DNA of 63,772 nt, the filler included, from Aduncisulcus paluster (Eukaryota), in NCBI GenBank assembly GCA_024181965.1. It is 11 parts of 11 records of this genome, joined end to end, with 100 filler letters (N's around TTAATTAATTAA, not from the genome) between each part and the next. Parts side by side here need not be neighbours in the genome. Positions count along the whole stretch, not along the records: positions 45,575 to 47,843 come from BQXS01000060.1; positions 47,944 to 50,274 come from BQXS01000061.1; 9 more parts are not named here. The stretch is one strand, 5' to 3'. The notes under the pieces were generated by a model. It was given only the letters and a program-made list of their open reading frames with translations. It was not told where the DNA came from and searched no databases. The position numbers and the translations under genes are program-made. Below, in pieces: positions 10,960 through 62,172 of the stretch (its first letter is position 1; every line of letters starts with the position of its first letter).

Positions 10960-11610
10960 ATGCTTGAATTTATTAGCTTTAGTTCTTTGTCCCTATCTTC
11001 TATGTATCCACTCAGTCTGGACGAGCTTTCAGCCAACAGTTCAACCGGATCACTAGGTAGTCTCATTGATTCCAATCAATCGTCATATTGGCAATCTAAT
11101 CTTAGTTGTCCCCACAAAATATTTATAAAATTTTCAAGGCCTATTTTTGTTAAGTCTTTCTACGTTCACACGTCAAATGGGGACGGAAATTACCAACCAG
11201 ATCGTCTTAAAATTACTTTTTCTGAAGAAGGTGGTGTGGAACATGCGACTACCCCAGATAGTACAGCAAGAAATGATGGGTGGTCTGTCATTCCCTGCCC
11301 ATCTCGGAGAAAGATAGAGAGAATTGAACTCTCTATCGAGTCAAACCATGATGGAGGATGTGATTGTCGAGTTCGTAATATCGCCGTTGAACAACTTAAG
11401 GGTGTGTTAGAAGAAGATAAAAAACAAATCCACTTGAAATCTCTCGCCAAAGACTTTCTCAAAATTATTCCTTCCGTCATTCTTGGAAAAGATGAAAAAG
11501 AGGAGAAACCACAGTTGATTGCTGAGGAAAAGGAAGGTATTCCTCCTGATTGTTCTGTAAAGTGTTCTTCAATCTCTCTCCCTGCTCACGAAATCATTCT
11601 CCGTTGCAGA
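10960..11610 (+). CDS. DOC/APC10-domain protein followed by a probable BTB start; truncated at contig end
   Basis: LIDSNQSSYWQSN..PHKIFIKF, NYQPDRLKI, GWSVIP, IELSIESNHDGGCDCRVRNI fit DOC; PPDCSVKC..SLPAHEIILRCR fits the BTB start. Confidence 0.7.
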
Positions 11611-11710
11611 NNNNNNNNNNNNNNNNNNNNNNNNNNNNNNNNNNNNNNNNNNNNTTAATTAATTAANNNNNNNNNNNNNNNNNNNNNNNNNNNNNNNNNN
11701 NNNNNNNNNN
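11611..11710. other. Artificial contig spacer 44N-TTAATTAATTAA-44N (also 22758-22857, 25547-25646, 35703-35802, 38339-38438, 41113-41212, 45475-45574, 47844-47943, 50275-50374, 62072-62171)
   Basis: Identical 100-nt construct ten times; core has stops in all six frames; genes are cut at both sides. Confidence 0.97.
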
Positions 11711-22757: not shown

Positions 22758-22857
22758 NNNNNNNNNNNNNNNNNNNNNNNNNNNNNNNNNNNNNNNNNNN
22801 NTTAATTAATTAANNNNNNNNNNNNNNNNNNNNNNNNNNNNNNNNNNNNNNNNNNNN

Positions 22858-25546: not shown

Positions 25547-25646
25547 NNNNNNNNNNNNNNNNNNNNNNNNNNNNNNNNNNNNNNNNNNNNTTAATTAATT
25601 AANNNNNNNNNNNNNNNNNNNNNNNNNNNNNNNNNNNNNNNNNNNN

Positions 25647-35702: not shown

Positions 35703-35802
35703 NNNNNNNNNNNNNNNNNNNNNNNNNNNNNNNNNNNNNNNNNNNNTTAATTAATTAANNNNNNNNNNNNNNNNNNNNNNNNNNNNNNNNNNNNNNNNNN
35801 NN

Positions 35803-37858
35803 ATTCCTCAAATACTGATGCAACCTTATCGAATTGGACAAGACATTCGGACAAAGGTTTGGATAGATGTTCACTCGATGTTATCAAAGATGATCGTGTG
35901 CAGACACTGTGGCCAGAAGAACCATGGGGCTGATCAAGACCACTGAGATATTGTGAGAGGAATTGTAACAGGAATGAACACACAGATTCGTTGGCTTTGA
36001 TCACATGTTCCATCCTTGATGAAGTGATACGAGAGCAGACACGAGAACACTCCGAACAGATGGCATTGATCTTGGATTCTAATAGTTCAGAAGAAATTGG
36101 TTCGGCAGGAAGTGAAGAGAGACATAACTCACGTAAATTGTGCAAGTCACGATATCCAGAAACATCGGGCATATGAATGGCATCCATGGCATTGTGAACA
36201 TCTTCGTTCGCAAGCTGATCATTCGTGTACACAAGCATCGAGAGGAATCTCCACCGAGGAAGAGATGTCTGGTATAGATCCTCGGCAGCAAGGGAAGAGA
36301 CGATCTGGCATGGAGAGTGGGAATCAACAGAGTCTTCATCATACAGAGGGATTAATGCATCAAGATCGGGCATGAAGGATCGACGATGTTCTATCACTTG
36401 GCCATGTTCATCCTGCACTCGTTGAGCAACAGACACAGATTGTCCAGCAACTCGGACAGACAAAGCACTGAGTTCACTCTGGAGGGATATGCAAGTACGT
36501 TCCAACATCGATCCTTGCTGATCAGAATGTTGACGATGTTGACCAATGAGGGAAATGGTATCTTCAAGCTGTTTGGAATGACCATCAAGATCTGATCGAT
36601 GTTCAGAGATTGTTGTTTGCAGCTGAGATGTGGCACTAAGAAGGGTTGTGATCTGTTCTGATTGTGATTTAATCTGTTCTGATTGTCTTTGGATTGTTTC
36701 TTCTTGCTTCCGAATAACATCGCCTTGAGTGGTAATTGTTGTCTGAAGGGAGTCAATTTGCTTCTTGTTGTCTGAAAGTTGACTAACAAGAGAATCAATC
36801 TGTTTGCCAACTTGATATCTCCATCTACGTGCAATTTCATCTTCTGGGTTATCAATGAATCGGATTCCTCCTAAAAGGTTATTATAATAACCTCCACCCC
36901 AATTTTCTTGAATCAGAATTTCACAAGATACAACGTTGGAAAGATCCACAGGAAACGAAATCCAAAACCATGAGAGTTCTCTTCCTTTAGCAATTTCATA
37001 TTTCTTAACGATCCTCTTTCCAGAAGAATCTGTGAATGTAGCATCAAATCGCTTGACTCCATTCGTATAATTGTGAGTTAAAAGACAAAACTCCCCAATA
37101 TAATGAGGAGATGTGAAAGGAATATATAGGGAAGGGAAGAAATAGAGGCATCCCTTCCCAGCTAAAAATTTTTTCAAATGAGATTGTCCATATCCATTAG
37201 TAAACCGACAAGATGCCTTTGGAACATCAACCTTAACAACTTGGGGGTGATCAACAGGATATAGACCATGACGTGCCTTAGAATCCAATCCATCTGGGTA
37301 AATTTCCATGCATTCTCCTGGAATACATGGTTGGTCGATGAATTCAAAGTCTTTTGTGAGGAATCGGATGGAATATAAACGGCTTGATTCAACAACACTC
37401 CCATCCCAACATTTGAGGGTTTCAAGGTCACATTGCACAATATCATCCAGATCAACAGGGAAAAGTTGCCAAGAGAATTTCTCTAAGTTCCTCTCATATT
37501 CATATTCCTTGACAACCTTTTCTCCAGAAGAAGTGGTGAAGATAGCATTGAATTCTTTAACACTTTTGGAACCTTCATGGTAATAACTCACACAAAAATA
37601 TTGAACATTATGTGGACTAACAAAAGGAAAGTGAATTTGCTTCTGGAATTCGATGTAACCTTCAGTATTTGATAAAAACTGTTTCATATTAGCTCCACCA
37701 AGATGATAATCAACCGAAGCATACCCTTCATAAATTTTAACAAGTTCAGAAGGATGGATGGGGAATGGGTCGGTGTAAAGGTGGGGAGAATCAGCATATT
37801 TAGATCCGTCTTTCTCCTTCTGATTATATCGAAGTAATTTCCCGGTTATTTTTACCAT
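35803..37858 (-). CDS. Two copies of the lineage-specific DOC-like domain plus coiled coil, 3'-truncated
   Basis: Repeats IHFPFVSPH...FTTSSGEKVVKEYE...WQLFPVDLDDIVQCDL and YIPFTSPH...FTDSSGKRIVKKYE...WISFPVDLSNVVSCEI, then heptad-rich region. Confidence 0.8.
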
Positions 37859-38438
37859 TTCAGGTTAAATATAAGAATATATCAACAAGTACGATAGTAG
37901 GATGTTGTCAAAACCGAGTCTGAGAAATATTTTTTCATGAGGAGCCGTATAAGAATATATTTAAAATTTCTGAATATTGGACAAAATTAACGTTGCCAAA
38001 AGGGAGCTAGCAGAATAAATAGTTTGGGGAGCCGGTGAATCGCCGGCTGCTACCGAGATCACAAATCCTTCTCTTCACAGGCCTTTGTTAACCATCACAA
38101 TTTCAATCTAGCAAGAAAAATTTATTATCATGAAATTATATTTCTCAAATCCAGGTTATTTTCCAATATTATCGAATTGTTGCATGATATCGGATAGAAT
38201 CGTCTCACCTCTAGTTATTCGATTTTATATTCCTTTATCGGAGGATATTTGTATTTAAATTAGACTATCATTTATCAGACCTGAAGGTGACGTAGCTGTC
38301 TTCGCTGGCTATCGAAATACTGCTTAAATACTCAGTACNNNNNNNNNNNNNNNNNNNNNNNNNNNNNNNNNNNNNNNNNNNNTTAATTAATTAANNNNNN
38401 NNNNNNNNNNNNNNNNNNNNNNNNNNNNNNNNNNNNNN

Positions 38439-40931: not shown

Positions 40932-41212
40932 TAAATATATAAAAATAAGAGATAAATCAATATAGTTATTAGTGTAAATAGTTGTTTTTCGAGAAAAATA
41001 GGCAGATCTGAAGGTGAGAAGAAAGAGAAGATTTGGGGAGGGTTAATTTGGGGATGTTGGCGCATCACTACCAAATCACTCTACTGTACTATACTGTATA
41101 CTGTTCTATACTNNNNNNNNNNNNNNNNNNNNNNNNNNNNNNNNNNNNNNNNNNNNTTAATTAATTAANNNNNNNNNNNNNNNNNNNNNNNNNNNNNNNN
41201 NNNNNNNNNNNN

Positions 41213-45474: not shown

Positions 45475-46112
45475 NNNNNNNNNNNNNNNNNNNNNNNNNN
45501 NNNNNNNNNNNNNNNNNNTTAATTAATTAANNNNNNNNNNNNNNNNNNNNNNNNNNNNNNNNNNNNNNNNNNNNTGAAGCATCAGGGGATTAGATTCGTA
45601 GCAGTATACAGACACATATATACCATCATATTCCGAGTTCTTGATATTTTTGATTGTAAGCAAAGGCAAGTGAAAATGAAACAGAAAGGCAAGGATAAGG
45701 ATAGAAATGAAATGGAAATATATCCATGTTATTGAATAGCATTGAAATCGTTCATAAATGTTCTTAACACGTGAAATGGAACTATATCCAGTCCTGAGGG
45801 TTCTCCAAAAGCCTGAGATATCGAGAATAAACACCATGGCATGGAAATGGAAATAAAACATGTTTTTATCATTTGTCAGCATTTAACTCGTTTATATGTG
45901 TGTTTTATAAATTCCCAATCTTATCTATTGAAGAGTTGCTTGTTCAGTCTGTTGGCGGCTAAGCACCGATGTCCATTTTTTCTTGGCAAACAAGCAAATC
46001 GTATGTTTACTATATGCCATATCTTTTATTAAATGTATATTAAGAAATATTTTAACAGGATTCATTCATTATTCTGCTTGTTTTTATATTTTAGATACGA
46101 AATTCTATCTCT

Positions 46113-47249
46113 ATGAGTTCATCCACAGATTCTCTCATTCAAACTCTGGAACCTGAGTTTGTTCATGAAGGATATCGGTGGTTCTGTCCAGTTCCAGGAG
46201 ATGCCCCCAATATTAAGAGTGCAGAGTTTCCAACTATCAAAGCAATAGATGGAACCAAGGAAGAAAGTGAATGTGGGTACGATCAGAGTTCTGAAGCACA
46301 AAAGATGATGAAAGCAGAAGGTCAGTTTGGACAATTTACCCATATCTCTATTCCTTTCTCTTCGTCTTCCCCAATGAAAGGGGCTTATATCTGTCTACAT
46401 GGTAATTCTTATCCTCCATCACACCTTATCTTCACTCTCACATCTTCAAAGGGTGATAAAACATCCAAGAAATGCGAATTTCATGAATTTCTTGGTTTTC
46501 ATTGGTATTTCCTTCCTGTTGATCTCCCTGATGTTGTTCTGTGTGAGATTACAGGGAAAGGAAGAAAGAAAGAGTCTTTTGATATCAAAATCCTTGTTTT
46601 TATTAGTAGAGAAGAAACTCCTGAAGAAATCAAATCTCGTGAAGCTAAAGAGAAACTATGGTCTGAAGCTCCAGTCGTGAAAGCAGAGTTTGTTAAGGAA
46701 GGAGATAAAAAATTTCAAGCTAGAGATTACATGCCCGTTCCACGAGTTTCTCCTCCCATTCAACGAGATGATCCAAAGCTTGTTAATCCTTCATTCTCAA
46801 TGGTTAAGTGCCAGGATGATTCGAGGAGTGTGGAATCTAAGTATTATGATCGGAGTTCAGAAGCACAAAAAATGTTGAAAGGGGAACGTCCACTATACGC
46901 CGGTGGTGTATGGTTATCCCATCTTTCTATCCCTTTCCCATCACCTAGTCCTATGAAAGGTGCTTATATCTGTGTGGATCATGGTTATAGCTCACCCTGT
47001 CTTCTCTTCACTTTTACTGATTGTGATGGCAAGAAGACCCTCAAGAAGTATGAATTCAGAAGACCTAGACATGATTATGAATGGGACTTCCTTCCTATTG
47101 ATTTAGAAAATGTTGTTTTGTGTGAGATTGAAGGGAAAGGAATATGGTGGAAGGAGAATAGTCGAATTTTTGAAATCTTCTCCCTTATGTTTATTATGCC
47201 CGAGGAAATCATTGCAGCTGAACGAATATCTCTTCTTCCATGGAAATAA
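46113..47249 (+). CDS. Lineage-specific protein of two tandem DOC-like domains
   Basis: Internal repeat EFVxEG...HxSIPF.S.SPMKGAYIC...FT.T...G.KT.KK.EF...W.FLP.DL..VVLCEI.GKG; intact 378-aa ORF. Confidence 0.85.
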   Translation: MSSSTDSLIQTLEPEFVHEGYRWFCPVPGDAPNIKSAEFPTIKAIDGTKEESECGYDQSSEAQKMMKAEGQFGQFTHISIPFSSSSPMKGAYICLHGNSYPPSHLIFTLTSSKGDKTSKKCEFHEFLGFHWYFLPVDLPDVVLCEITGKGRKKESFDIKILVFISREETPEEIKSREAKEKLWSEAPVVKAEFVKEGDKKFQARDYMPVPRVSPPIQRDDPKLVNPSFSMVKCQDDSRSVESKYYDRSSEAQKMLKGERPLYAGGVWLSHLSIPFPSPSPMKGAYICVDHGYSSPCLLFTFTDCDGKKTLKKYEFRRPRHDYEWDFLPIDLENVVLCEIEGKGIWWKENSRIFEIFSLMFIMPEEIIAAERISLLPWK

Positions 47250-47535
47250 TGCAAGAAATGGTATGAAATGCTAATATTGTGTGAAGAACAATAAAAAAAA
47301 GCACCTGTTTTTTTTTTCCGGAAATTCCGGGGTCTTTATTCTAGATTGTTGGACAAAATCCCTATGTCACAGGGCCTATGAGTTGGAAACGGAAGTCTAA
47401 TGCAATGCATTCAATGTATTGTCCCGGAAAGAGATTCACAAACGGGTTTTGAGTCCGTTTGAGAACTTTGATTTCTAAGCAAGAGAAAATAAATCTAAAA
47501 ACCAATAAAATCAATTCGTTTGTTCTTTTCAGGCA

Positions 47536-47735
47536 TTATTTCTTGATTCCTAATAATTCAACATCAAATATGAGAGTAGAATCAGGTGGAATAGAATCGC
47601 CAGCTCCACGGGCACCATAACCATAATCAGGATCGATTTGATTACAATCGTGGCTCTTTCACCAACACTTAATGTAAGAAAGGCTTCATCACAAACACTG
47701 ATAACCATACCCATTCCAACTGCAAATTCAAAAAC
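47536..47735 (-). pseudogene. FKBP-type peptidyl-prolyl isomerase fragment, frameshifted
   Basis: [32 protein letters not shown], then a 5-nt insertion, then [32 protein letters not shown]; conserved Trp replaced by Cys; not in the ORF track. Confidence 0.85.
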
Positions 47736-48534
47736 CTACGATATCACTTTCCATGATTGTCACATTGTCAATCTGGGGTGAAATAGCACAAAGCTCAGTA
47801 TTAAATGTATCAGATGATCAGGATCTGGCATTGAAGTTGGAGTNNNNNNNNNNNNNNNNNNNNNNNNNNNNNNNNNNNNNNNNNNNNTTAATTAATTAAN
47901 NNNNNNNNNNNNNNNNNNNNNNNNNNNNNNNNNNNNNNNNNNNCTTCATTTTCTCCAGGCGGACTCCGCCCAAACCGGGAGTTTGGAACTTCCAAACAGA
48001 AAACAGGCTTGAAGCCTTCCATATCTGAGATAGATAGACACATAGGCGACGTAAGAAGAGGGCTCATAACCTTGGGATTTTGTCACTTTAGAATCCAATA
48101 TATAAATAAAACAGGGACTTATGAAACGATTTTGTATCAGGAGTGGAGTCACAAGGATGGCATGCAACATATGATAGAAAGAAAATGTTCATATATTTTT
48201 ATGTATATATTATGCGATATCAATTTCCAAGGTTGTCAATCGAGGGTTGTAAGTTTGGTGGCCATCTTTTCCCGCTTTTAGAGCAAATTGTATGTTTAAT
48301 ATATGTCACATCTTTTATTAAATGTATATTAAGAAATATTTTAACCGGATTCATTCAATTATACTCACTATATTATGCTGTGTGGTCGTTTCTTGTTCGT
48401 TTTGTTCGTTTTGTCTTTGTTTCTCGGACTGTTTTCCTTGAAATTCGCATTTATTCTGTTTGTTCACAAATACTAATATTATTATTATTCTGCTTGTTTT
48501 TATTCTTTAGATAAGAAGTTCTATCTCTATTCAA

Positions 48535-50274
48535 ATGAGTTCATCCACAGATGCTGTTATTCAAACTGTGGAACCTGAGTTTGTTCATGGGGGAGATTAT
48601 TATTGCTGTCCAATTCCTCGAGATGCCCCCAATGTTAAGAGTGCAGCATTTCCAACTATCAAAGCAATAGATGGGACCAAGAAAGAAGGTGGTTATCACT
48701 ATGATCAGAGTTCTAATGCACAACAGATGATGCAAGGAGAGTTTAATTTAGGAAATATAACCCATATTTACATTCCTTTTTCCTCATCTTCCCCAATGAA
48801 AGGGGCTTATATATGTCTTGATGGTGATTCTTCTTATTGGACGTCACCTCCATCGCACCTTATCTTCACTCTCACATCTTCAAAGGGTGAGAAAACATCC
48901 AAGAAATACGATTTTCCTGAATTTGAAGATGAACATTGGTATTTCCTTCCTGTTGATCTCCCTGATGTTGTTCTGTGTGAGATTACAGGGAAAGGAAGAG
49001 AGAAAGAGTTTTTTGGAATCGAATCCCTTGTTTTCATTAGTAGAGAAGAAACTCCTGAAGAACTCAAATCTCGTGAAGCCAGAGAGAAACTATGGTCTGA
49101 AGCTCAAGTTGTGAAACCAGAGTTTGTTAAAGGAGGATATATCGATCTGTTTGGTAAAGGTAGAGATTCTATTCCCATTCCACGAGATGATCCAAAGCTG
49201 GTAGATCCTTCGTTCTCAATGGTTAAGTGCAAGAATGATGCGTTTTGTAAGGAATCTAAGGGGTATGATCAGAGTTTAAGAGCACAAAAAATGTTAAAAG
49301 GGGAAGATTCTATTAGCTTATCCCATCTTTCCATCCCTTTCCCATCACCTAGTCCAATGAAAGGTGCTTATATCTGTGTGGATCAGAGTCGGAGTTCTCC
49401 CTCTCTTCACTTTCACTGATTGTGATGGTAAGAAGACATTCAAGAAGTATGAATTCACAGAACCTGAACATATATTTGAGTGGAACTTCCTTCCTATTGA
49501 TTTGGATAATGTTGTATTGTGTGAGCTTGAAGGGAAAGGAAAGTGGTGTAATAAGAATAGTCGAAATTTCAGGATCAACTCCCTTGTTTTCCTTCGAGGT
49601 GATGATATTCCCACCTCTCCTCATCCTCTTCTTCCTCCTGTTCCTGTTCCTTCCAGTTCCTCCAAGACACCCACATCAACTTTGTCTTTGCCATCAAAAC
49701 CTATGAAAGAAGAAGCTGTGAAAGAAGAAAAAGAGATATAGACAGAATCTCTGCCATCAAAACGTGTTAAGGAACCTCTGAAAGAAGCTTTGCCTGTGAA
49801 AGAAGAAGAAGAAGAAATTGTTATTAAAGGAAATGATAAGGATCCAAGACCAAAAGACACCAAACCGAAGAAACATACGGATAAAAAGAAACATAACCCC
49901 AAGGATGGCAAGCCCAAGTATAACCCCAAGCACGACTCGCTAACACTGACATCTGCATCCACGCTGACTTCACAGTGCATCATTGGCAGTGGTGGGTTCG
50001 GAGAGGTTCTTCTTGTTCTTATTGATGGCATTCCTTTCCCATGTGTTCTGAAGAAGATGCTTCGGATTGCGGACAAAACTGTTGTGAAAGGGTGTCGGAA
50101 GGAGTTTAAAGTGCAACTCAAGTTGTTTAACAATCCCAAATGTTTCAACCATATCCCACGTCCTCTGTATATCCTTGACCTGCTTGATTGCGATATGAAA
50201 GGTGTGTATGGCTTCCTGATGGAGTTCTGTGTTGGAGGCAGTGTGAGTGCGTTTGCCAAGCGTTGGTGTGCTGA
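48535..50274 (+). pseudogene. Two DOC-like domains, Pro/charged linker and protein kinase N-lobe; disrupted and truncated
   Basis: Close paralog of 46113..47249; 5-nt deletion near 49405 and in-frame TAG at 49739-49741; kinase IGSGGFGEV, VLKK, LMEFC. Confidence 0.8.
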
Positions 50275-50374
50275 NNNNNNNNNNNNNNNNNNNNNNNNNN
50301 NNNNNNNNNNNNNNNNNNTTAATTAATTAANNNNNNNNNNNNNNNNNNNNNNNNNNNNNNNNNNNNNNNNNNNN

Positions 50375-51572
50375 CTGGACTCGCTCTCGGGCCTTATGAA
50401 CACTCATACGTTTACCAATATCAACCTTTGTTAAACCCTCAAACACATCATTCAGACACTCAAAAACAGGTGTATATTTCCCACCTTCAATGGTCTGAAG
50501 AGATCTGAAAAGACAAGAATTGGAGAGTTTAGGTCCAAGTCCTTCCAAAATACTGTTCCTTAACTTTGTGGCGAATTCTACTCTGTTTTTCAATCCTTGT
50601 AAAACAGGAGAATGGAAGAAAGGATCACAACCTTCGAAAACGGCAAGGATAGTCATTCCAAGAGAGTATGCATCACTTTCCTGGCTATGCATCCCTTGAA
50701 GGGCTTCACAAGAATTGTACACAAGTGTCCCACAAATTGAAGGGTCTTCTTTGTGAGGTTGAGAAGAAGAGGATGATAGCAAAGTTGAAGAGGCAAAACT
50801 TTTGACAACGGAGGAAGAAGATATTGAATTCTGAATCTGAGCAATACCAAGATCAGAGAGAACAATTGTACATTTTTTGGATTCGGGGTCAGCACGGACA
50901 AGAAAGTTATCAGGTTTTATGTCACGATGGATCAATCTTGGTTTAGCCGTGAATACATCGTCAAGACATTCAATCATCCCTACACAAAGAGCACTTACCT
51001 TAACAGGGTTAAGTAACATCGAATCAAAGTGGATATGAATTGAAGACGCGTCGGAACTTGAATCAGAGCTTGAATCATCAGAATCTTCCCTCTCTTCAAC
51101 TCTAATATATCTGTTATCAGCACACCAACCCTTGGCAAATGCACGTACACTACCACCAAGACAAAATTCCATCAAAAATCCATAAACACCTTTGAAATCG
51201 CTATCGAGAAGATCAAGAATATACAGAGGGCGCGGTATTCGGTTGAAACATTTTGGATTATTAAACAACTTTCGTTGCATTTTAAACTCCTTTCGACAAC
51301 CTTTTATAACTCTATGATCAGCAACACGCAACATCTTCTTCAGAACGCACAGAAAAGGAATATCATCAATTTTAACAAGAAGAACCTCTGCAAAACCACC
51401 GCTGCCAATGATGCACTGAGGTAAAATAGTTGCCAGTGAAGTTAGAGTAAATGAGTCACGCTTAGGTACATGTTGTCTAGCCCCCTGAAAAAAAAAAAAA
51501 AAAGCTATTAGCCTGATAATAAGAACAAAAGAATCAACAAAACCAAAAACAAAGCCATACTTCTAGACTCAT
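50375..51572 (-). CDS. Lineage-expanded protein kinase, 3'-truncated
   Basis: GSGGFAEV, VLKK, IHRDIKPDN, DLG, GTLVYNSCE, SDAYSLG; predicted intron 51485-51560 (GTATGG...TCAG) links MSLE to GARQHVPKRDS. Confidence 0.85.
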
Positions 51573-51919: not shown

Positions 51920-54900
51920 ATGTATTTTGGACAATCTAGAATATTTATTTTATTTTTATTTTTTATATTTTTACTTTTTTGTTTTATTCACTGTGAAGGT
52001 AATACATCTCTGAAAAACGAGTTTGTTTCAAAATACATTGATCCTAATGTTTCAATAAGTGAAGAATATGCGACAGTTCCAGATAATGCTCTTCTTCAAG
52101 CACTGTGTAACTATGCTGGTCTCATAACTCCTTGTTCAAACATCACTGTCGCTGAGATTAATAGTATCTCTTCAAATCCACTTGACCTCGCAAATCTTTC
52201 AATATCTAATATTTCTGGCTTGGAACACCTTTCAACTTCTATCAATGAAATTTTGTTGCAGGAAAATTTTTATCTTGTTGACCTTGCTCCCATTTCTTCT
52301 CTTTCCGGCCTTTCTTCATTGAATTTATCCAATACTTCCGTGTATAATTTGAGCCCTATTTCTAATTTGAATTCGTTAACTTCATTATTTCTCGTCTCAT
52401 GCCCAATTGATTACACTACCTTTAATTTTTCGTATTCTCTTGAAGTTTTGGATATTTCTGATACTGGAACCATTGATCTTTCTGTTTTAGAAACATTTAC
52501 TGATCTATCGGTTTTAATTCTTGATAATTGTGACATTTTGAATGAAGATCTGAATGATTTCTTCAATTCTTTCCCTTTTCCAGTTCTGGATATTCTATCA
52601 CTCTCTGGTCTTAATCTTGAATACATACCCGAATTTCATGAGGATACTTCCAATATTACCAGTGTTGACCTCTCTGACAACTCAATTGTGGATCTTCTCC
52701 CATTGATTGATCATGATAGTTTGGTGGAATTATCTGTGAGTAATAACCTTATTATAGATCCCACTCCATTGTTTCTTGAGCCCTATTTCTAATTTGAATT
52801 CGTTAACTTCATTATTTCTCGTCTCATGCCCAATTGATTACACTACCTTTAATTTTTCGTATTCTCTTGAAGTTTTGGATATTTCTGATACTGGAACCAT
52901 TGATCTTTCTGTTTTAGAAACATTTACTGATCTATCGGTTTTAATTCTTGATAATTGTGACATTTTGAATGAAGATCTGAATGATTTCTTCAATTCTTTC
53001 CCTTTTCCAGTTCTGGATATTCTATCACTCTCTGGTCTTAATCTTGAATACATACCCGAATTTCATGAGGATACTTCCAATATTACCAGTGTTGACCTCT
53101 CTGACAACTCAATTGTGGATCTTCTCCCATTGATTGATCATGATAGTTTGGTGGAATTATCTGTGAGTAATAACCTTATTATAGATCCCACTCCATTGTT
53201 TCTTTTGGGTTCACAGTTTGAAAACCTCTCTATCAGTTATAACCATATATGTGGAATGGATGCAGCTTGGTTGACTTCCTATATGAAATCTGGTTCTTCT
53301 CTTGTTATTCAGGATGACATATTGGAGCAAACGTGTGATTGTGCCACCAAATATCCATGTTATGAATCATTTGCGACCGACTTTGTCGTGTGTAAGACTA
53401 TCCAGAATGAGTTCTGGGCAGCATGTGCTTCAGTGGCTTATTACAACGCTCCACCGACAACTTCTTATTACAATGAACCACTTTCTTTCACTGACATATT
53501 ATTCACATGTAATTACAATGAACAATTTGCGATAAATGTTGTTGATCGATCATATGATAGAGAATGCTCAAGTGCTTCATGTTCCTCCCTCTCTTGTATC
53601 TTTGGATGGTATGGAGATGAATGTGACGATCCATGTCCCATCACTTCAGCCATTTTTGCTGCTGGACATTCGCATTGTGTTGATGATATTGATGAACTTG
53701 GTACTATTTGCCATGATACCGAACATTATTGTGAATGCGGTGATGGATTAATCGGTAACTCATGCAATATTCTTCAAATTTCGGACCAACATCTTCAAAA
53801 TGGCCTTTCCAATAATCTTTATTCTTCTTCTTGGTCATCGATCTATGTTTATGATCTTTACGATTTCTCTGACCATCTTGACCTTAATAATCTGTTCATC
53901 ACCGATATTCAGGGGCTTAGATTTGCTTCTAATGTCCCATCAATCGATTTGGGAAGTAATTCTGATCTTTCCGATATTTCCGAGCTCAATCTCATCCCCC
54001 ATCCAAAGCTTGAGGCATTGAATCTTCGTGATGTGATGATTATGGACTTGAATATAGCTCTGTCAAACTTATATGAACAAATAATTGAATTACATTTGAC
54101 TATGTCTTTTACTGATGATGAGGATGATGAATGGAACGTTATCGAACAGATCGAACCTTTTGTTAACCTTCAAAGCCTTGGTTTGTATGATGGAGACTCT
54201 TACCTTGAATCTGAAAGCCCCGTATTTATTCAAGATTATGTTGAAACGCTGACATCTGTAACCTTTGATAATGTGCCATATTATGATTTGTCTCCTTTTT
54301 ATCTCCTCCGTGACTCGCTTCAGTTCTTAGATATTTCAAATACCCGAATCAATTTTGATTATGATGATTATCCAAATGAAATTGAAGCATTCCGTTCCCA
54401 CTTTGCAACTCAGGACACTCTTGAGNNNNNNNNNNNNNNNNNNNNTAATTGAATTACATTTGACTATGTCTTTTACTGATGATGAGGATGATGAATGGAA
54501 CGTTATCGAACAGATCGAACCTTTTGTTAACCTTCAAAGCCTTGGTTTGTATGATGGAGACTCTTACCTTGAATCTGAAAGCCCCGTATTTATTCAAGAT
54601 TATGTTGAAACGCTGACATCTGTAACCTTTGATAATGTGCCATATTATGATTTGTCTCCTTTTTATCTCCTCCGTGACTCGCTTCAGTTCTTAGATATTT
54701 CAAATACCCGAATCAATTTTGATTATGATAATTATCCAAATGAAATTGAAGCATTCCGTTCCCACTTTGCAACTCAGGACACTCTTGAGATCATTGCCAG
54801 TGGAAATCGTGCTTCTACAAGCAACAATACGTTTCCTTTATTGTCCTTGAACGAGCGACTATATTGGATACCTTCCGAATACCGTGTTTGTTGCACTGAA

Positions 54901-57684
54901 ACATCTTATCTCGATGCTCGGACCATGAATCCTCTTGCGCTGTCTGGAGATATTTCGTGTATATTCATTGATCCATTTGAAAACTTAGAGCTCCATGATC
55001 AGTGTTTTGGATTATCGCTTGAGAACAAAATGTGTGTTGGTGTTACTGATGATGGCACTGTTGATGATGTGTTCATCGAGTGTATCTCGAGGCATTATGG
55101 GGAGAATTGTGATTCATGTGTGTTGGATGAGGTTGGGAATATATGTCCAAATATCGGCGAATGTAATATTAATAATTATAAAATTAGTGATTTTAAATGT
55201 GGTTGTCAGCCTGAAGATGAGGCGGGAATTCGGTGTAACCCAGACTATCGATATTCAGTGTTCTCTTTAACAAATGATTATGACCTTGCTGTAGCATTAT
55301 GTGTTGGTATGGGATATTATTTCTGTAGCTATCGGTACACAGATCAAGAAACAATTGAATCACTGGTGTTGTATTCAGATTTTCCCATCGTTGAAAAGCT
55401 GGAATACCCTTCATCGTCAGATCCCTCACATTTATTTGTTGCAAACCAACTCAAAGTCCTGAGTTTTGAAGAAGGAACTCATCTAGAAGATCTTTCATTT
55501 ATTGCTCGAATGTGGCACTTGCGATCCCTTGATCTTGGTAATGTTCAGGGCATAAATAAGTCAATGTTTGAAGGGCTTGTGCAAGCTGTTTTGGATCGTT
55601 CCCTTGAAATGGAATTGGATGATAACTACAGTGCCTCTGAGACATATTGTTTTGGGTCCTGTCACCTGAGGTATCTAAACTTATCAGGACAGAGCCTCGG
55701 CCTTGACATCAACGATTCCTCAAACTCCTTCTCATCCACCTTATCCCTTGTCAATGGATTCGCCATTTGTTCTGGGGATTGTTCAAATAAGGAAGATATC
55801 TATCCTCTCGGTAAGCTCTTGACTCACGTTGACCTGTCGAGTAACTCCATCTATGATCCCTCCATCATTGGAATTCAACCATCATTCCGTCGTTTGACTC
55901 ACATTGACCTGAGTGAAAATAACATTAGTGACATTAGTCTCGTCGGAGCTCTCATTAAGAGTCTTGATTACATCCATAATCTCGATCTCTCTGGCAATAT
56001 GTTGCCCTGTGCTTCTGACAACGAATGCAATACTCTTCTCCAAGAAACAATGCCTTCAATCGATATTAGTGGTGTTACATTGACATTTGAACCTCAATAT
56101 GAGCTTGTCTGTGGAAGTGAGAGCTGTGGAGGTGATAATATGACGTGTATTGTTCAAGCTGGATCACCAACATGTGCCTGTCTGACTGGATATTATCTAT
56201 TGGGTGAGTCTTGTATTGAGGATGTTGATGGCTATTGTTCCTCTTCATGTACTGGTGAAAGAGGAATTTGTAAAGTTATTCAAGATGACACCGATTCCTC
56301 TGATTCCCCTAATCCTGTTTGTGTCTGTTCTGATGAATGGTATGGAGATGACTGTGACTTTGCATGTCCGATTGATAACGATGGCTATCTATGTGGAAAT
56401 GACCATGGATCATGTGATATTATGAGTCATTCATGCTCATGTGATGGTTATACAGGTTCTTCATGTGAGATTGAATGTGATGCTGATGTTCAGTGTAGTT
56501 CCAATGGATTATGTTCCTATTTCTCAGACGTTGAGAATGGAGAACAATTCGAAGTTTTGATATGTGAATGTGAATCTGGGTATTACGGTTCTATGTGTCA
56601 ATCCTCGGTACCCGTGGAGATATTTATAGAAAATGGATCAGTCACTGATTATATTTGTGGAAGAGATTATTCCTCTCCTTCTTCACAAGGTGATTATTCT
56701 TCCCTTGTCAATGAAATCAGTCATTCTTGCGATTGTTCAGACAATGGTTTTGCTGTGTCTGCAGAGGGATTCTGCATCGATCCTTCAACCCACCCTGATT
56801 ATAAGGATATTGATGGAAATGACACCGCCTGTGTCAGGTGTGGGATCTCAGAATTGAGTCATGGATCATGTGTTATTCATTCGAGTGGATCTGCTTTCTG
56901 TTCATGTGATTATGGGTATGGAGAAGAAGCCATAGACGATGATTCTGAATCATTTGCATCCGATACCGTCCTTTGCTCGACATTTATCTGTGGAGTATCT
57001 TCATCTCTTGACCTCGGAGCTTGCAATGGCCATGGAAGTTGTCTGTTGAACTCTCGAATGTCGTACGAATGCCAATGTGACGGTGTTTGGTCAGGAATAA
57101 GTTGTTCTTTGACATCAAATGAAACTTCACTCCTTCAATGGTTTTTGATTGTTTCAATATTTGTTCTGTGTGCTTTGATAATATCTTTGCTTGTATTTGC
57201 AGTCATACGCCGAGAAAATAAGAAATATTATCTCAAAACAACACTTCTTGACTCTGAGAATCTTGTTCAGAAAACCGATACTGAGAAAGAACGTCCTCTA
57301 AAAATAGGAGAGATGGTATTAAATCCTTCCCATTTGTCCAGGGAGAGTATCTCTGATGAGCATCTTAAAGATGATAGAATGGAAACTTTGGTTGTCGTGA
57401 CACCCCACTCAGAAAATCCTGCTTCAATGCATCCCCGTGGAATTCATACAACCCTCAGCGAGAAAGAAGATTGTGCAAGCATTGAACATGGAAAGATCGA
57501 TCCAGAGCTAAAACTTACAGAGAAAGAGGGAGAGAAAGGAAAGATAGTTATAACAAAACGAAGGAAGAAAAAGAAAGTTCAAAAGAAAAAGACCAAATCT
57601 GTAGAAATGTCTGAAATTAGAGCAGAAGATGTCATAGAGGATTCTGAGGTGTCAAAGAAGAAGAGGAGGAAGAAAAGAAAATAG
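51920..57684 (+). CDS. Large type-I membrane protein with alternating LRR and EGF-like/Cys-rich blocks
   Basis: Signal peptide, internalin-like LRRs, GWYGDECD and CNGHGSC..CQCDGVWSGISC motifs, TM helix and basic tail; three ORFs join once the duplications at 52349-53202 and 54082-54789 are removed. Confidence 0.85.
52349..53204. repeat. 427-bp tandem duplication inside the LRR gene causing a frameshift
   Basis: 52349-52775 = 52776-53202 with TT microhomology; no gap. Confidence 0.9.
54082..54789. repeat. Gap-flanking duplication (54082-54425 = 54446-54789)
   Basis: Same sequence around a 20-N gap; one mismatch seen (G54366/A54730). Confidence 0.9.
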
Positions 57685-59693: not shown

Positions 59694-61630
59694 CTAACAA
59701 ACCATATCTGATGGCCAAATAGATTGAATAGTAATAGAAGTACTATCTGAAAATATGGTTATTGTCTCTTCTTCTTCATCATCACAGGAAATCAATGATT
59801 CTTTTGTGAACAAAATCGACATAATGGCGGCATTATTAGCATGTTTCCAATACCATTTCCCTTTGACTCTGATCTCACACAAGGTAACATTTTCACATTT
59901 TACAGGGAAATACCACCATTCAACATCATTTGTTGGGCGTATTAATTTGTATTTCCTTGTTGTTTTAACATTTGAAGAATTTGTTAAAATAAATAACATA
60001 TTTCTTGGGCCTTTTTCACTACTTAAGCGAAGAAAAACTCCACCAATCGATGATGGAAACTCGAATGGAATTGAAAGATGCGTAAAATAAATTTCATCTT
60101 CCTCTTCGAATTGAAACAAACGTCGTGCACGGATAGATTTGTCTTTAAATCTTCCATCATGATAAAAGGAAACATCAGTGGCTGTTATTTTTTTCAGATC
60201 TGGAAAAAGCGAGTCTTTTTTCGGAACAGGTGGAATAAGATCCGGAGCACAATCAGATTTATGCGAAGTCATTAGTTTCTAATAAATGACATTCAAAATA
60301 AATAATCGAGATCAAATAATAATAATATTTCATATATTATTCTCTATATACGAAATTAATAAATTTTTCAAAAGTTTTGACTAAACATACAGCTTCTTTC
60401 CATAATTTTTCATCGGCTTCTTCATCATCTCTTCGAGTTTTATATTCTTTATCAGTTTCTTCTCTGGTAAAAAAAAGGGATACAATCCGCGAATGTTTCG
60501 AATACCTCTGATTCCACTTTCCCTTTCCTTCAATTTCACATAAAATCACGTTATCTTTATCTATTGGGAGGTAGAACCACTCCATATAATTTGCAACCTC
60601 CTTAAAATGACAGATCATCAGTGATTCTGACTCATCGTTGTGGGTGAATTTCAGAAGAAGGATCGGAGGACCATCATCAATATCAATACAGATATAGATT
60701 CCTTTAATTGCCATTCCTGTCCTATCAAACTTAAAGGACATATGGGAAAACCAAAAATACGATTGAATTCCTTCCCACATTTCAAAGGTATCAGCAGACT
60801 TATCACTTTTTTCAGGAACCTCAGTTATATCCTTTCCACATATATCTGAAGGCCTTAAAGATATAATTATTGGATTGTCTCTTTTGATTGGACATGAATC
60901 TCGACCACCTTCATGTATGAATTCAGGTTCAATTGATTGGTATTTTTCAATGAGAATTCGTTTCTCTTCTTCTTTTCTCTTTCTCTGTTTAATTTCTTCC
61001 TCTCTTTCTTCCCGAACAAAGATCATCGAAACAACATTAGTAGTGAGACGCTTGGGATCTTCCCAGGCTCCAAGAGCATCAATATCACAATGATCGACTT
61101 CTTTGACTCCCAAATGCAGAAAAAACCATGATTCTTCTATTATTTCAGAAGAAAAATTGAATTTTATAATTCTTAAGTTGGATTCATCTTCTCCCTTATA
61201 GAGTCTAAATGTAAAAATCGGAGGACCTTTTTCAACACAAATATATACACCGTAGATATCAAATAATTCGCTAAAATCGATTGATAGTGTTGTAAAATCG
61301 AGTCCATTGTGCCCAGCAAACATATCACGACCCATTTGAGATGGTTTTTTGTGATCACCGGCACCAACCGGCATTATCGCTTTCATCATCATCATCTGAC
61401 TTATCCCCTAAGTCAAAAGAAGTAATACTTTTAATATGTCTGTTAATAACAATAGGTTCATCACGAACAATTGGAAGGCATCTTCGGCCACCTTCATGAA
61501 GAAAAGAAGGAATTTTGAAGTCATCTTTGAAAAACTAAATAAAACATAAATATCAAAGAGTTTCAATAAACTAGATCAAAAATATCAACAAATAACATAC
61601 GATATCATGTTCATAACTTATACATTCCAT
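59694..61630 (-). pseudogene. Three DOC-like domains, three exons, one frameshift
   Basis: Introns 61535-61600 and 60279-60390 (both GTATGT...TTAG, phase 0); domain 1 starts IPSFLHEGGRRCLPIVRDEP but a 10-nt insertion at 61357-61373 shifts the frame. Confidence 0.7.
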
Positions 61631-62071: not shown

Positions 62072-62172
62072 NNNNNNNNNNNNNNNNNNNNNNNNNNNNN
62101 NNNNNNNNNNNNNNNTTAATTAATTAANNNNNNNNNNNNNNNNNNNNNNNNNNNNNNNNNNNNNNNNNNNNT

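Follow-up and report, generated by a model that had tools for sequence, protein, structure and literature searches.

[quoted passage not shown] It carries members of a large paralog family whose conserved scaffold varies only at discrete sites, and which we read, at a probability of about 60%, as a diversified module that binds targets in the cytosol and feeds into kinase signalling. A fixed scaffold with diversified patches had been proposed in an initial annotation of two genes, here called A and B (Table 1), and per-site entropy over 463 aligned domain copies now extends this pattern to the family as a whole.

Gene A is the canonical stand-alone form of the family, and its product is 100% identical to database protein P0001. 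Over the 378 sites, entropy exceeds 2.5 bits at 36 and is below 0.5 bits at 154. The hypervariable patches lie at residues 21-23, 54-55, 61/64, 70-74, 96-99, 127-129, 152 and 157/159 of domain 1 and at residues 244, 250, 265/267, 289-292, 321, 332, 346-347 and 352/354/356 of domain 2, and each patch occurs in 44-58 distinct variants among 59 paralogs. As had been suggested from A and B, the patches occupy equivalent positions of both tandem domains: the per-site entropies of domains 1 and 2 correlate with a Spearman coefficient of 0.64 over 155 aligned positions, and of 0.75 over 166 profile columns when the 463 domain copies are placed on one HMM. The proposed involvement of alternating strand positions is borne out by the F-x-I-x-(S)LVF motif, whose x sites (157 and 159; 352, 354 and 356) rank with the most variable of all and are separated by nearly invariant residues. 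Loops alternate as well, with variable (97-101, 123-128, 151-159) and conserved ones (111-115, 138-141) in domain 1, mirrored in domain 2. This alternation of the loops, and that of variable with buried strand positions, points to one end of the sandwich; from the loop parity and the binding sites of discoidin, CBM32 and APC10 domains we infer a single face for the variable loops. The hypervariable sites are enriched in Tyr (3.1-fold), Trp (2.95-fold), Asn (2.9-fold) and Asp (2.0-fold) and depleted in Pro, Thr, Met, Val, Ile and Leu. A protein-level recombination test on the paralogs was not significant (p = 0.089). Upstream of A, the non-coding stretch common to B has a pyrimidine-rich 3' end (...tttag) directly before the ATG; bins upstream of B are likewise covered by many paralogous contigs, and some annotated paralogs read through the leader upstream of the ATG. 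We infer a shared 5' leader for A and B, possibly with a 5'-UTR intron.

Table 1 Features of the jelly-roll family and its kinase in the window.
Feature	Position	Strand	Basis or remark
Very divergent member, two jelly-roll domains (about 36899-37681)	35803..37858	-	27% identity to A; tblastn, ORF
Non-coding stretch upstream of A, common to B	45970..46112	+	9 mismatches/100 aligned bases
Gene A, intact 378-aa two-domain member, MSSSTD... to ...LLPWK, TAA stop	46113..47249	+	ORF; 59 paralogs with the same two termini
A domain 1, residues 9-168, N-terminal hairpin and jelly roll	46137..46616	+	AF2 models, fold matches, entropy
Inter-domain helix of A, residues 170-185, REETPEEI...EKLWSE	46620..46667	+	DSSP on model; low entropy (conserved)
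A domain 2, residues 188-365	46674..47207	+	Model, fold matches, entropy
Artificial linker, N run + TTAATTAATTAA + N run	47844..47943	.	Non-genomic; separates contig of A from contig of B
Gene B frame 1, domain 1 and first part of domain 2, end ...SSPSLHFH*	48535..49419	+	ORF reading
Gene B frame 2, remainder of domain 2 (to about 49610) and Pro-rich linker	49403..49738	+	ORF, tblastn
Gene B continuation, same frame, Lys/Glu-rich linker and protein-kinase N-lobe (GSGGFGEV...VLKK...)	49742..50274	+	Ends at contig end
Kinase paralog P0268, next contig	50375..51460	-	Pfam PF00069 E 5.6e-13; HRD, catalytic Lys, DLG motif
Divergent three-domain member, annotated P0190	59694..61395	-	About 30-35% identity to A; tblastn, ORFs

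The comparison of A with B from which the pattern was first described has to be read with some care. All ten patch pairs then quoted are present in translations of 46113-47249 and of 48535-49419 and 49364-49741, and the two paralogs were called nearly identical. This is true of framework stretches, the longest identical runs being 22, 22, 16, 14, 14 and 12 residues, but not of the whole length: the codon alignment has 95 differences in 351 aligned residues (73% identity), and the tblastn segments of 301 and 69 residues are 69% and 68% identical. The differences do cluster in patches (index of dispersion 1.33 vs. 0.71 permuted, p = 0.0002; 8-residue bins, 5000 permutations), and they fall on sites that are hypervariable elsewhere in the family, for with entropy classes taken from 58 other paralogs, A and B both excluded, the two genes differ at 33 of 36 sites above 2.5 bits vs. 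13 of 139 below 0.5 bits. A and B had been placed in one span; they are located on two separate contigs (45575-47843 and 47944-50274), and because these are artificially linked, the adjacency of the genes is not genomic. B is also not an intact ORF. Compared with A and the paralogs it is 5 nt short at about 49397-49401, which is why frame 1 stops early, and an in-frame TAG at 49739-49741 closes frame 2; contigs paralogous to B carry an extra TCTCT, TCT or T at 49400-49401. The public annotation of B, P0096, places introns across both lesions, one of which deletes the near-invariant MKGAYICV motif. Gene B may be a pseudogene. Its end had been put at 49610, but the same frame continues up to 50274: downstream of the jelly rolls a Pro/Lys-rich linker is followed by a kinase N-lobe with 83% identity over 72 aa (tblastn) to the kinase at 50375-51334, and P0096 appears among the relatives of that kinase, P0268. 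The kinase fusion of the module, the lesions of B and the contig separation had all been overlooked.

The two lesions in B raise the question of whether the family might be an assembly or annotation artefact, i.e. chimeric consensus contigs and pseudogene debris from a collapsed repeat in a short-read assembly. The assembly, built from Illumina reads only, has 25,863 contigs and an N50 of 4.6 kb (genome announcement), the contigs of A and B are 2.3 kb each, and many family models are labelled 'partial'. Even so we regard an artefact as most improbable, given that the start and the ...LLPWK end are conserved in A and 58 aligned paralogs, all of them intact, that the framework omega of the A-B pair is 0.24 and therefore points to purifying selection, that contigs with members reach 47 kb, several members seemingly sharing one, and that there is an independent transcriptome-derived copy of one member (P0266). 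Records from a second run (X2), which we guess to be RNA, also map to the contig of B, 2,630 contigs in number, and likewise argue against an artefact.

Within the A-B pair, the variable loops change 3-4.6 times faster than synonymous sites, an excess that is marginal with the local yardstick. With the 36 hypervariable codons taken from 58 other paralogs, dN at these codons is 1.23 compared with a local dS of 0.41 (omega 3.0, Fisher p = 0.067, 17.8 synonymous sites) and a gene-wide dS of 0.27 (omega 4.6, bootstrap 2.8-8.7, Fisher p = 9e-10); these values come from this one pair, whose member B has both a frameshift and a stop, and site selection on amino-acid variability favours high dN. Had gene conversion homogenised the framework, its dS would make the patches look younger than they are. 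The marginal local test would suit neutral drift in tolerant loops of a family that expanded for other reasons, e.g. as scaffolding or structural proteins, or as domains that target kinases and share one partner; loops that tolerate any residue would mean that the patches carry no specificity. The position of 26 of the 36 hypervariable sites in coil, the varying length of two patches, as in relaxed loops, and the saturated and uncorrelated inter-paralog patch distances are also in line with drift. However, neutral sites should not reach a dN that tops gene-wide dS, four-fold-site divergence (17 of 109) and that of the upstream non-coding stretch (9 of 100). Drift is equally at odds with variation in alternate loops only, the intervening ones being nearly invariant, with patches rich in Tyr, Trp, Asn and Asp and poor in Pro, and with fixed-register strand sites (F-x-I-x-SLVF) that vary without indels, making it, in our view, an unlikely account.

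Each unit of ~165 aa is predicted with high confidence to form the galactose-binding-domain-like jelly roll that the initial annotation had proposed (AF2; pLDDT 88.5 and 89.3, pTM 0.84 and 0.85), and the predicted beta-sandwich is superposable on CBM32, discoidin or DOC domains for most of its length. The more specific assignment to DOC/APC10 stands only in part. APC10 comes first by Foldseek, APC10/Doc1 making up 8 of the 12 single-domain matches with E ≤ 1e-3 (best match 1gqp_B, E 1.9e-4, TM 0.45/0.41), but DOC lies within 1-1.5 Z units of CBM32, IFT25, muskelin and PITH, a structural tie, so that the nearest folds are APC10/DOC, CBM32/discoidin, IFT25 and PITH alike; the domain pair retrieves tandem CBM32, neuropilin b1b2 and factor VIII C1C2. 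DOC membership is unproven because no sequence model matches. PF03256 is unmatched in A, B, 145 representatives and 5 further members, and in the scan of those 5 it does find the window's true ANAPC10-domain gene at 10960 with E 1.2e-11. Aligning the family profile (A1) with that gene by hhalign pairs equivalent strands, as would be expected of true, highly diverged DOC/APC10 domains serving as substrate-recognition adaptors of ubiquitin ligases, but at a probability of 0.2% (E 0.27; single-sequence template). The domain partners, which are kinase, thioredoxin, PARP, LRR and ankyrin, also argue against such adaptors, with no cullin, HECT, RING or other ligase domain in the 145 representatives and 5 further members, and we consider this origin quite improbable. 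Other sequence models fare no better: no Pfam family matches A or B at E ≤ 1, PF00754 (F5/8 type C/CBM32) has no match in A, B or the representatives and further members scanned, the family profile has none among PDB sequences at E ≤ 10, and there is no Pfam match to PITH (PF06201), whose thioredoxin-PITH order is absent, thioredoxin coming last in P0055 and P0091.

How large and how widespread is this family? A search at E ≤ 1e-3 yielded 169 family proteins of 207-662 aa, and all 119 named proteins among 120 listed matches are from A. paluster. The family profile had 165 matches among 1.84 billion cluster representatives, and those looked up by name, including the 7 weakest listed, were again from A. 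paluster (17 of 17). Judged by sequence similarity, the family is several hundred paralogs strong and is found only in A. paluster among the proteins searched. The 265 proteins fetched hold 635 domain copies, most commonly arranged as D1-D2 (134 proteins), with a largest array of 14, and make up no less than about 1.7% of the 15,316 proteins predicted for A. paluster (genome announcement). In line with such a size, 14,626 contig records of a DNA run (X1) map to the contig of B at ≥ 80% likeness. We found no account of this family in the literature searched, and no profile library names it. Pfam scans detect Pkinase in 36 of 145 cluster representatives (19 of 34 and 17 of 111) and none in the other 109, frequencies that are rough because many models are cut by contig ends; conversely, 20 of 61 relatives of the window kinase P0268 are also jelly-roll family members. 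P0268 itself is preceded by a polypyrimidine-AG acceptor and has no jelly-roll domain upstream on its contig. Against PDB sequences, the best that the kinase matches are generic kinases (CDPK, PAK4 and Aurora, E about 1e-5 to 1e-6). Other Pfam partners in the 34, 111 and 5 proteins scanned are PARP, LRR, ankyrin, thioredoxin and importin, the thioredoxin domain occurring in 2 of 120 listed members, C-terminal of the jelly rolls (P0055, residues 385-472; P0091, residues 384-469). The window holds two more members besides A and B: the P0190 locus, read as two ORFs (60337-61395 and 59694-60272), and the very divergent member, in which a coiled-coil-like tail follows the jelly rolls and leaves the contig. 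Family N-termini read MSSSTD..., and a crude hydropathy scan finds any 19-mer above 1.8 in 18 of 265 proteins, most of those shown falling in kinase or jelly-roll strands. Together with inspection of the N-termini, this agrees with the earlier statement that there is no signal peptide, reveals no consistent membrane segment and does not match the secreted context of F5/8 type C domains. The family proteins are thus predicted to be cytosolic.

In the reading we favour, that of a diversified binding module wired to kinases, the predicted ~165-residue discoidin/CBM32/DOC-like beta-sandwich is the building block, which as a rule occurs as an unvarying D1-helix-D2 pair and in some members in arrays. 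Core strands and every second loop, almost invariant, would provide the scaffold and the interface to a common downstream partner, and the variable end of each domain, with its hypervariable alternate loops and outward last-strand residues, would be a candidate diversified binding site for proteins, peptides or glycans. In many members, B included, a disordered linker joins the module to a C-terminal Ser/Thr-type kinase from a family no less restricted to this species, so that binding could be coupled to phosphorylation, either for target recruitment or for ligand sensing; stand-alone forms of ~365 aa such as A may act as adaptors or decoys. An immune-like role of the diversified surface is possible, and to our knowledge nothing links the family to pathogens. 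A stronger version, which we think unlikely, is a germline-encoded intracellular repertoire of hypervariable receptors: hundreds of tandem jelly-roll sensors with differently shaped loops, many wired to kinases and a few to PARP, thioredoxin or LRR domains, that would sense invaders, prey bacteria or viruses by their proteins or glycans and signal by phosphorylation. If true, this would amount to innate immunity or prey sensing in a protist, assembled from parts that animals, plants and fungi are not known to use in this way. Hypervariable loops like those of immune and substrate-recognition families, a discoidin/DOC-like cytosolic scaffold and direct kinase fusion are each known individually but not together. 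Should the loops be under diversifying selection, the family would offer a tractable example of a free-living protist building a large intracellular recognition repertoire, as well as a natural library of hundreds of loop variants on one stable scaffold; if they are not, it would still be a striking lineage-specific expansion that fragments the genome assembly.

Several known systems share parts of this design. APC10/DOC domains (PF03256; Apc10/Doc1, HERC2, CUL7, HECTD3) are likewise cytosolic galactose-binding-like jelly rolls of ~150 aa, and in Apc10 loops at one end help bind degron peptides, the kind of protein recognition proposed here. They differ in having no sequence match and no clear profile similarity to the family, and are single-copy ubiquitin-ligase parts, whereas the A. 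paluster proteins are hundreds of paralogs, tandem or in arrays, kinase-fused and without a ligase domain in those scanned. Domains of the CBM32/discoidin type (PF00754; ZmpB CBM32-1/-2, neuropilin b1b2, factor VIII C1C2) are also used in tandem and bind ligands through apical loops ('spikes') that correspond in topology to the hypervariable loops; these are lectin- or lipid-binding modules, extracellular or secreted, in contrast to a family with neither signal peptide nor consistent membrane segment nor PF00754 match in the members scanned. PITH, the thioredoxin-linked jelly roll of TXNL1 and PITHD1, is cytosolic and recalls P0055 and P0091, but the order is reversed (jelly rolls first and thioredoxin last in A. 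paluster), there is no sequence match, and PITH is single-copy and not diversified. Fixed beta-sandwiches whose loops are under positive selection also mark the paralogs of two cytosolic groups, the TRIM5/finTRIM B30.2-SPRY proteins and the MATH-BTB adaptors. They have in common with the A. paluster family a large lineage-specific expansion, an invariant sandwich core and variation centred on the loops, with dN above dS in the loops of the known families, and they differ in fold family and in carrying RING or BTB ubiquitin-ligase parts instead of a kinase. Bivalve C1q-domain proteins reportedly follow a similar logic (PMC6835236), in another fold family and with a secreted collagen stalk. A last parallel lies closer in phylogeny. 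Giardia NEK kinases with ankyrin repeats are an expanded fornicate kinase family and, as in A. paluster, combine a lineage-specific kinase expansion with a protein-binding module that may be a targeting device, but the A. paluster kinase is not recognisably a NEK, and its partner is a hypervariable jelly roll rather than ankyrin.

The family of proteins A and B is probably (about 60%, in our estimate) a diversified, cytosolic binding module that is specific to its lineage and built on a discoidin/DOC-like scaffold, arranged in rigid tandem pairs and arrays and often coupled to a kinase. Over 351 aligned residues A and B are 73% identical (95 differences), with runs of identity of up to 22 residues, and every pair of divergent patches quoted for them in the initial annotation is present in their translations. 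The residues that differ occur in clusters (index of dispersion 1.33 vs. 0.71 in 5000 permutations, p = 0.0002). In an alignment of 59 two-domain paralogs, taken from the 72 listed proteins of 340–400 aa (13 with non-canonical C-termini were excluded), per-site entropy is sharply bimodal, with 36 of 378 positions above 2.5 bits and 154 below 0.5 bits. With the hypervariable sites set from the remaining 58 paralogs once A is left out, B being absent from the alignment, differences between the two proteins fall on 33 of 36 hypervariable sites vs. 13 of 139 conserved sites, which bears out the earlier description of clustered differences on a conserved framework. The patches were also said to be equivalent in both tandem domains, and per-site variability does correlate between domains 1 and 2 (Spearman 0.64 over 155 aligned positions, and 0.75 over 166 profile columns for 463 domain copies on one HMM); the reported alternation of variable strand positions is real in the last strand, F-x-I-x-SLVF. 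The patches include residues 21–23, 54–55, 70–74, 96–99, 127–129, 152–159, 265–267, 289–292, 321 and 346–356 of protein A. Each patch has 44–58 distinct variants among the 59 paralogs. At the variable sites Tyr is over-represented 3.1x, Trp 2.95x, Asn 2.9x and Asp 2.0x, and Pro, Thr, Met and the aliphatics are under-represented, a composition typical of binding interfaces, not floppy linkers. By structure, the 36 hypervariable sites divide into 26 coil, 7 strand and 3 helix positions, and variable and conserved jelly-roll loops take turns along the chain (see table). Every other loop of an up-and-down sandwich sits at one and the same end, the end that carries the ligand sites of discoidin and CBM32 domains and the degron-binding loops of Apc10. 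Taken together with these known sites, the alternation suggests that the variable loops lie at one end of the sandwich.

Neutral drift in tolerant loops, the family having expanded otherwise, would be another account of this variability, and one we regard as unlikely. A Nei-Gojobori analysis of one close coding pair, A vs. B, bears on it. In the framework (entropy <= 1 bit, 228 codons), dN is 0.060 and dS 0.248 (omega 0.24). For the 36 hypervariable codons, dN is 1.23, giving an omega of 3.0 with the local dS of 0.41, estimated from only 17.8 synonymous sites (Fisher p = 0.067), and of 4.6 with the gene-wide dS of 0.27 (bootstrap 95% interval 2.8–8.7, Fisher p = 9e-10); these are values for sites picked for their variability, in a single pair of which one partner (B) is possibly a pseudogene, and gene conversion homogenising the framework could skew the comparison. 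Read in this way, the coding sequences favour diversifying selection at the hypervariable sites. The two genes differ at 17 of 109 four-fold degenerate sites, and at 9 of 100 aligned bases in the DNA that they share upstream of the ATG. A protein-level PHI-like test for recombination gave p = 0.089 over 260 informative columns, and the longest identical nucleotide tract between A and B, 66 nt, falls within the most constrained strand pair.

The predicted structure is that of a pair of jelly rolls, as had been anticipated. AlphaFold2, run on the 59-paralog alignment (pLDDT 88.5, pTM 0.84), places beta-sandwich domains at residues 9–168 and 188–365, a linking helix at 170–185 and a C-terminal helix at 364–373; domain 1 alone reaches a pLDDT of 89.3. 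Foldseek matches to the domain pair are the tandem CBM32 of ZmpB (E 5.6e-9) together with neuropilin b1b2, factor VIII C1C2 and allantoicase. Domain 1 by itself gives 12 matches at E <= 1e-3: eight APC10/Doc1 chains, the best at E 1.9e-4 with a TM of 0.45/0.41, and four that are CBM32 or a Bacteroides protein. Fold-comparison scores, in Z units, are 11.0–13.7 for CBM32, 10.9–11.2 for HECTD3 DOC, 10.9–11.1 for APC10/Doc1, 10.5–11.2 for IFT25, 10.0–10.6 for Muskelin and 9.1–10.5 for PITH. Judged from these models, the galactose-binding-like superfamily is the right level at which to name the fold, and DOC is a reasonable nearest neighbour. That the proteins are genuine, very diverged DOC-type ligase adaptors is very unlikely. 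One defining feature of DOC, a profile match, was looked for and not found. The repeated domain has no Pfam family match in any protein tested, and no PDB sequence matches the family profile at E <= 10. Domain 2 found no usable match among named clusters of the ESM Atlas, and a viral structure library returned generic F5/8C, CBM and tail-fibre jelly rolls only, none of them specific. The genuine ANAPC10/DOC-domain gene of the window appears to have no sequence relation to the family (hhalign probability 0.2%, though equivalent strands were paired). The fold class and the diversification proposed in the initial annotation stand, while DOC membership is unproven. The UniRef name 'NudC domain-containing', carried by three database proteins (P0005, P0009, P0102; further P numbers likewise denote database proteins), was rejected, there being no CS/NudC Pfam match at E <= 0.01.

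Features of the window (nucleotide positions) and loops of the jelly-roll domains (residue positions)
Feature	Position	Strand	Remarks
ANAPC10/DOC-domain gene, genuine	10960-11610	+	PF03256 E 1.2e-11; runs past contig end
Divergent two-domain member	35803-37858	-	coiled-coil-like tail
Contig of gene A	45575-47843		2,269 bp
Shared upstream non-coding DNA, A / B	45970-46075 / 48259-48365	+	~100 nt, 91% identical
Gene A	46113-47249	+	intact 378-aa ORF; MSSSTD... start, ...LLPWK end, TAA stop
Contig of gene B	47944-50274		2,331 bp
Kinase paralog without jelly-roll domains	50375-51460	-	
Likely 3' splice site	51460-51500	-	long polypyrimidine run and AG directly ahead of kinase exon 50375-51460
Divergent three-domain member	59694-61395	-	
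Linkers, first five	11611-11710, 22758-22857, 25547-25646, 35703-35802, 38339-38438		N-run / TTAATTAATTAA / N-run
Linkers, other five	41113-41212, 45475-45574, 47844-47943, 50275-50374, 62072-62171		N-run / TTAATTAATTAA / N-run
Loop	residues 97-101		variable, mean entropy 2.5 bits
Loop	residues 111-115		conserved, mean entropy 0.6 bits
Loop	residues 123-128		variable
Turn	residues 138-141		conserved
Loop	residues 151-159		variable
Loop, domain 2	residues 290-295		variable
Loop, domain 2	residues 304-307		conserved
Loop, domain 2	residues 315-321		variable
Loop, domain 2	residues 342-356		variable

The window (63,772 bases) is not a single locus: it consists of 11 contigs of 1.6–11.7 kb, and because the N...TTAATTAATTAA...N linkers between them are artificial, neighbourhood arguments across the joins are invalid. 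A and B lie on separate contigs and are adjacent only because these were concatenated. Protein A matches a database entry with 100% identity, and its canonical start, end and TAA are common to most of the 59 aligned paralogs. Gene B is damaged at two sites. It has 5 nt fewer than A in a CT-rich stretch at ~49397–49401, which shifts the frame within domain 2, and a subsequent in-frame TAG (49739–49741) closes the frame, which then reopens in the same frame. Among the differences listed, paralog contigs aligned to B carry an extra TCTCT, TCT or T at exactly 49400–49401. The introns of P0096, the public gene model of B, span both lesions, and we take this model to be a work-around because one intron deletes the near-invariant MKGAYICV motif. 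B is either a pseudogene or a mis-assembled copy. Splicing at the listed joints 49712>49795 and 49728>49779 near the TAG was rejected, as both are also present in the DNA run and are therefore paralog length variants. Reassignment of TAG was likewise set aside, the conserved TAA after ...LLPWK in A and many paralogs giving no hint of stop-codon reassignment, though it is no test of TAG itself. B also extends beyond its first proposed end at 49610, its frame continuing through a Pro-/Lys-rich linker into a protein-kinase N-lobe that is truncated by the contig end at 50274. Many paralogous contigs cover the upstream bins of B as well; given this shared DNA in A, B and paralog contigs, the duplications took the promoter/leader along with the gene. 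Downstream of A, ~47540–47740 (-) resembles by eye what we take to be the C-terminal part of an FKBP-type peptidyl-prolyl isomerase. A large gene at 51920–57684 (+) has a signal-peptide-like start, leucine-rich repeats, many Cys-rich EGF-like stretches, a single hydrophobic segment near the end of its product and a Lys-rich tail; a block of its sequence is duplicated on either side of an N gap near 54400, probably through assembly.

According to the accessible text of the A. paluster genome announcement (PMC9933649), the assembly was made with MaSuRCA from Illumina data only and comprises 29.4 Mb in 25,863 contigs (N50 4.6 kb) with 15,316 predicted proteins; the jelly-roll family is not mentioned there. 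In the accessible text of PMC11437800, the A. paluster proteins counted are cysteine-rich surface proteins only, and no description of the family was found in the literature searched. The family is large. Within the 207–662 aa range alone, 169 proteins at E <= 1e-3 came from a word-seeded search, and comparison of the family profile with 1.84 billion cluster representatives gave 165 matches, 109 of them at E <= 1e-30. Names were checked for 17 of the 150 listed profile matches, the 7 weakest included, and all 17 are from A. paluster, as are the four matches to a divergent in-window member; one matched cluster also contains a transcriptome-derived copy. HMMs for domains 1 and 2 find 635 domain copies in 265 fetched proteins, in which D1-D2 is the commonest architecture (134 proteins) and arrays reach 14 copies. 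At 80% likeness, 14,626 contig records of the DNA run X1 and 2,630 of X2, which we guess to be RNA, align to the contig of B (the runs are coded 'DNA?' and 'RNA?', and no listed run containing this contig is recorded as RNA), with up to 124 contigs at single positions. Several listed members have identical longest-contig figures (e.g. 41,827, 32,491, 47,250, 33,052 and 21,040), which suggests real clusters elsewhere in the genome. That the family is an artefact of assembly is, in our judgement, exceedingly improbable.

Coupling to kinases is frequent within the diversified family. A Pfam scan detects a protein-kinase domain in 36 of 145 representatives (19 of 34 at E <= 1e-3 plus 17 of 111 at E <= 1e-5, five of the matches being below the Pfam gathering score), and where models are whole the jelly rolls precede the kinase. 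Rarer partners are PARP (P0122), LRR (P0141), thioredoxin (P0055, P0091) and an importin-like protein (P0233), together with a weak ankyrin match, below the Pfam cutoff, in P0142. The kinase of the window retains the HRD motif, the catalytic Lys and the Asp of a DLG motif, and among PDB sequences it comes closest to generic Ser/Thr kinases (E ~1e-5 to 1e-6). All 61 of its relatives are from A. paluster; 20 of them also belong to the jelly-roll family, and two (P0304, P0305) are fused to small GTPases (Ras/Roc/Arf-type Pfam matches), a further lineage-specific kinase architecture in this species. Complex prediction for protein A and this kinase gave no answer (score 0.00) and is neutral on binding. 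In some members (the set P0055, P0091, P0085, P0089, P0093) an ...LLPWE tail runs on into a thioredoxin domain, and three models of ~354–382 aa end a few residues into this extension, so an ancestor fused to thioredoxin may be the source of the common ...LLPWK end. In a crude hydropathy scan, which flagged 18 of 265 proteins, most of the segments shown lie inside domains and no membrane segment is consistent across the family. The N-termini are hydrophilic, and to the extent that such evidence allows, the family would be cytosolic, in line with the initial suggestion of a cytosolic protein lacking a signal peptide.

As a binding module, the jelly-roll unit would target or regulate its coupled kinase, and stand-alone forms such as A would serve as adaptors or decoys. 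An immune-like role, raised in the initial annotation, or a prey-sensing one would be compatible with all observations, and we consider either quite doubtful. The systems with which we compare the family are TRIM-SPRY, MATH-BTB and the Giardia NEK kinases, and it would belong among the diversified beta-sandwich recognition families.
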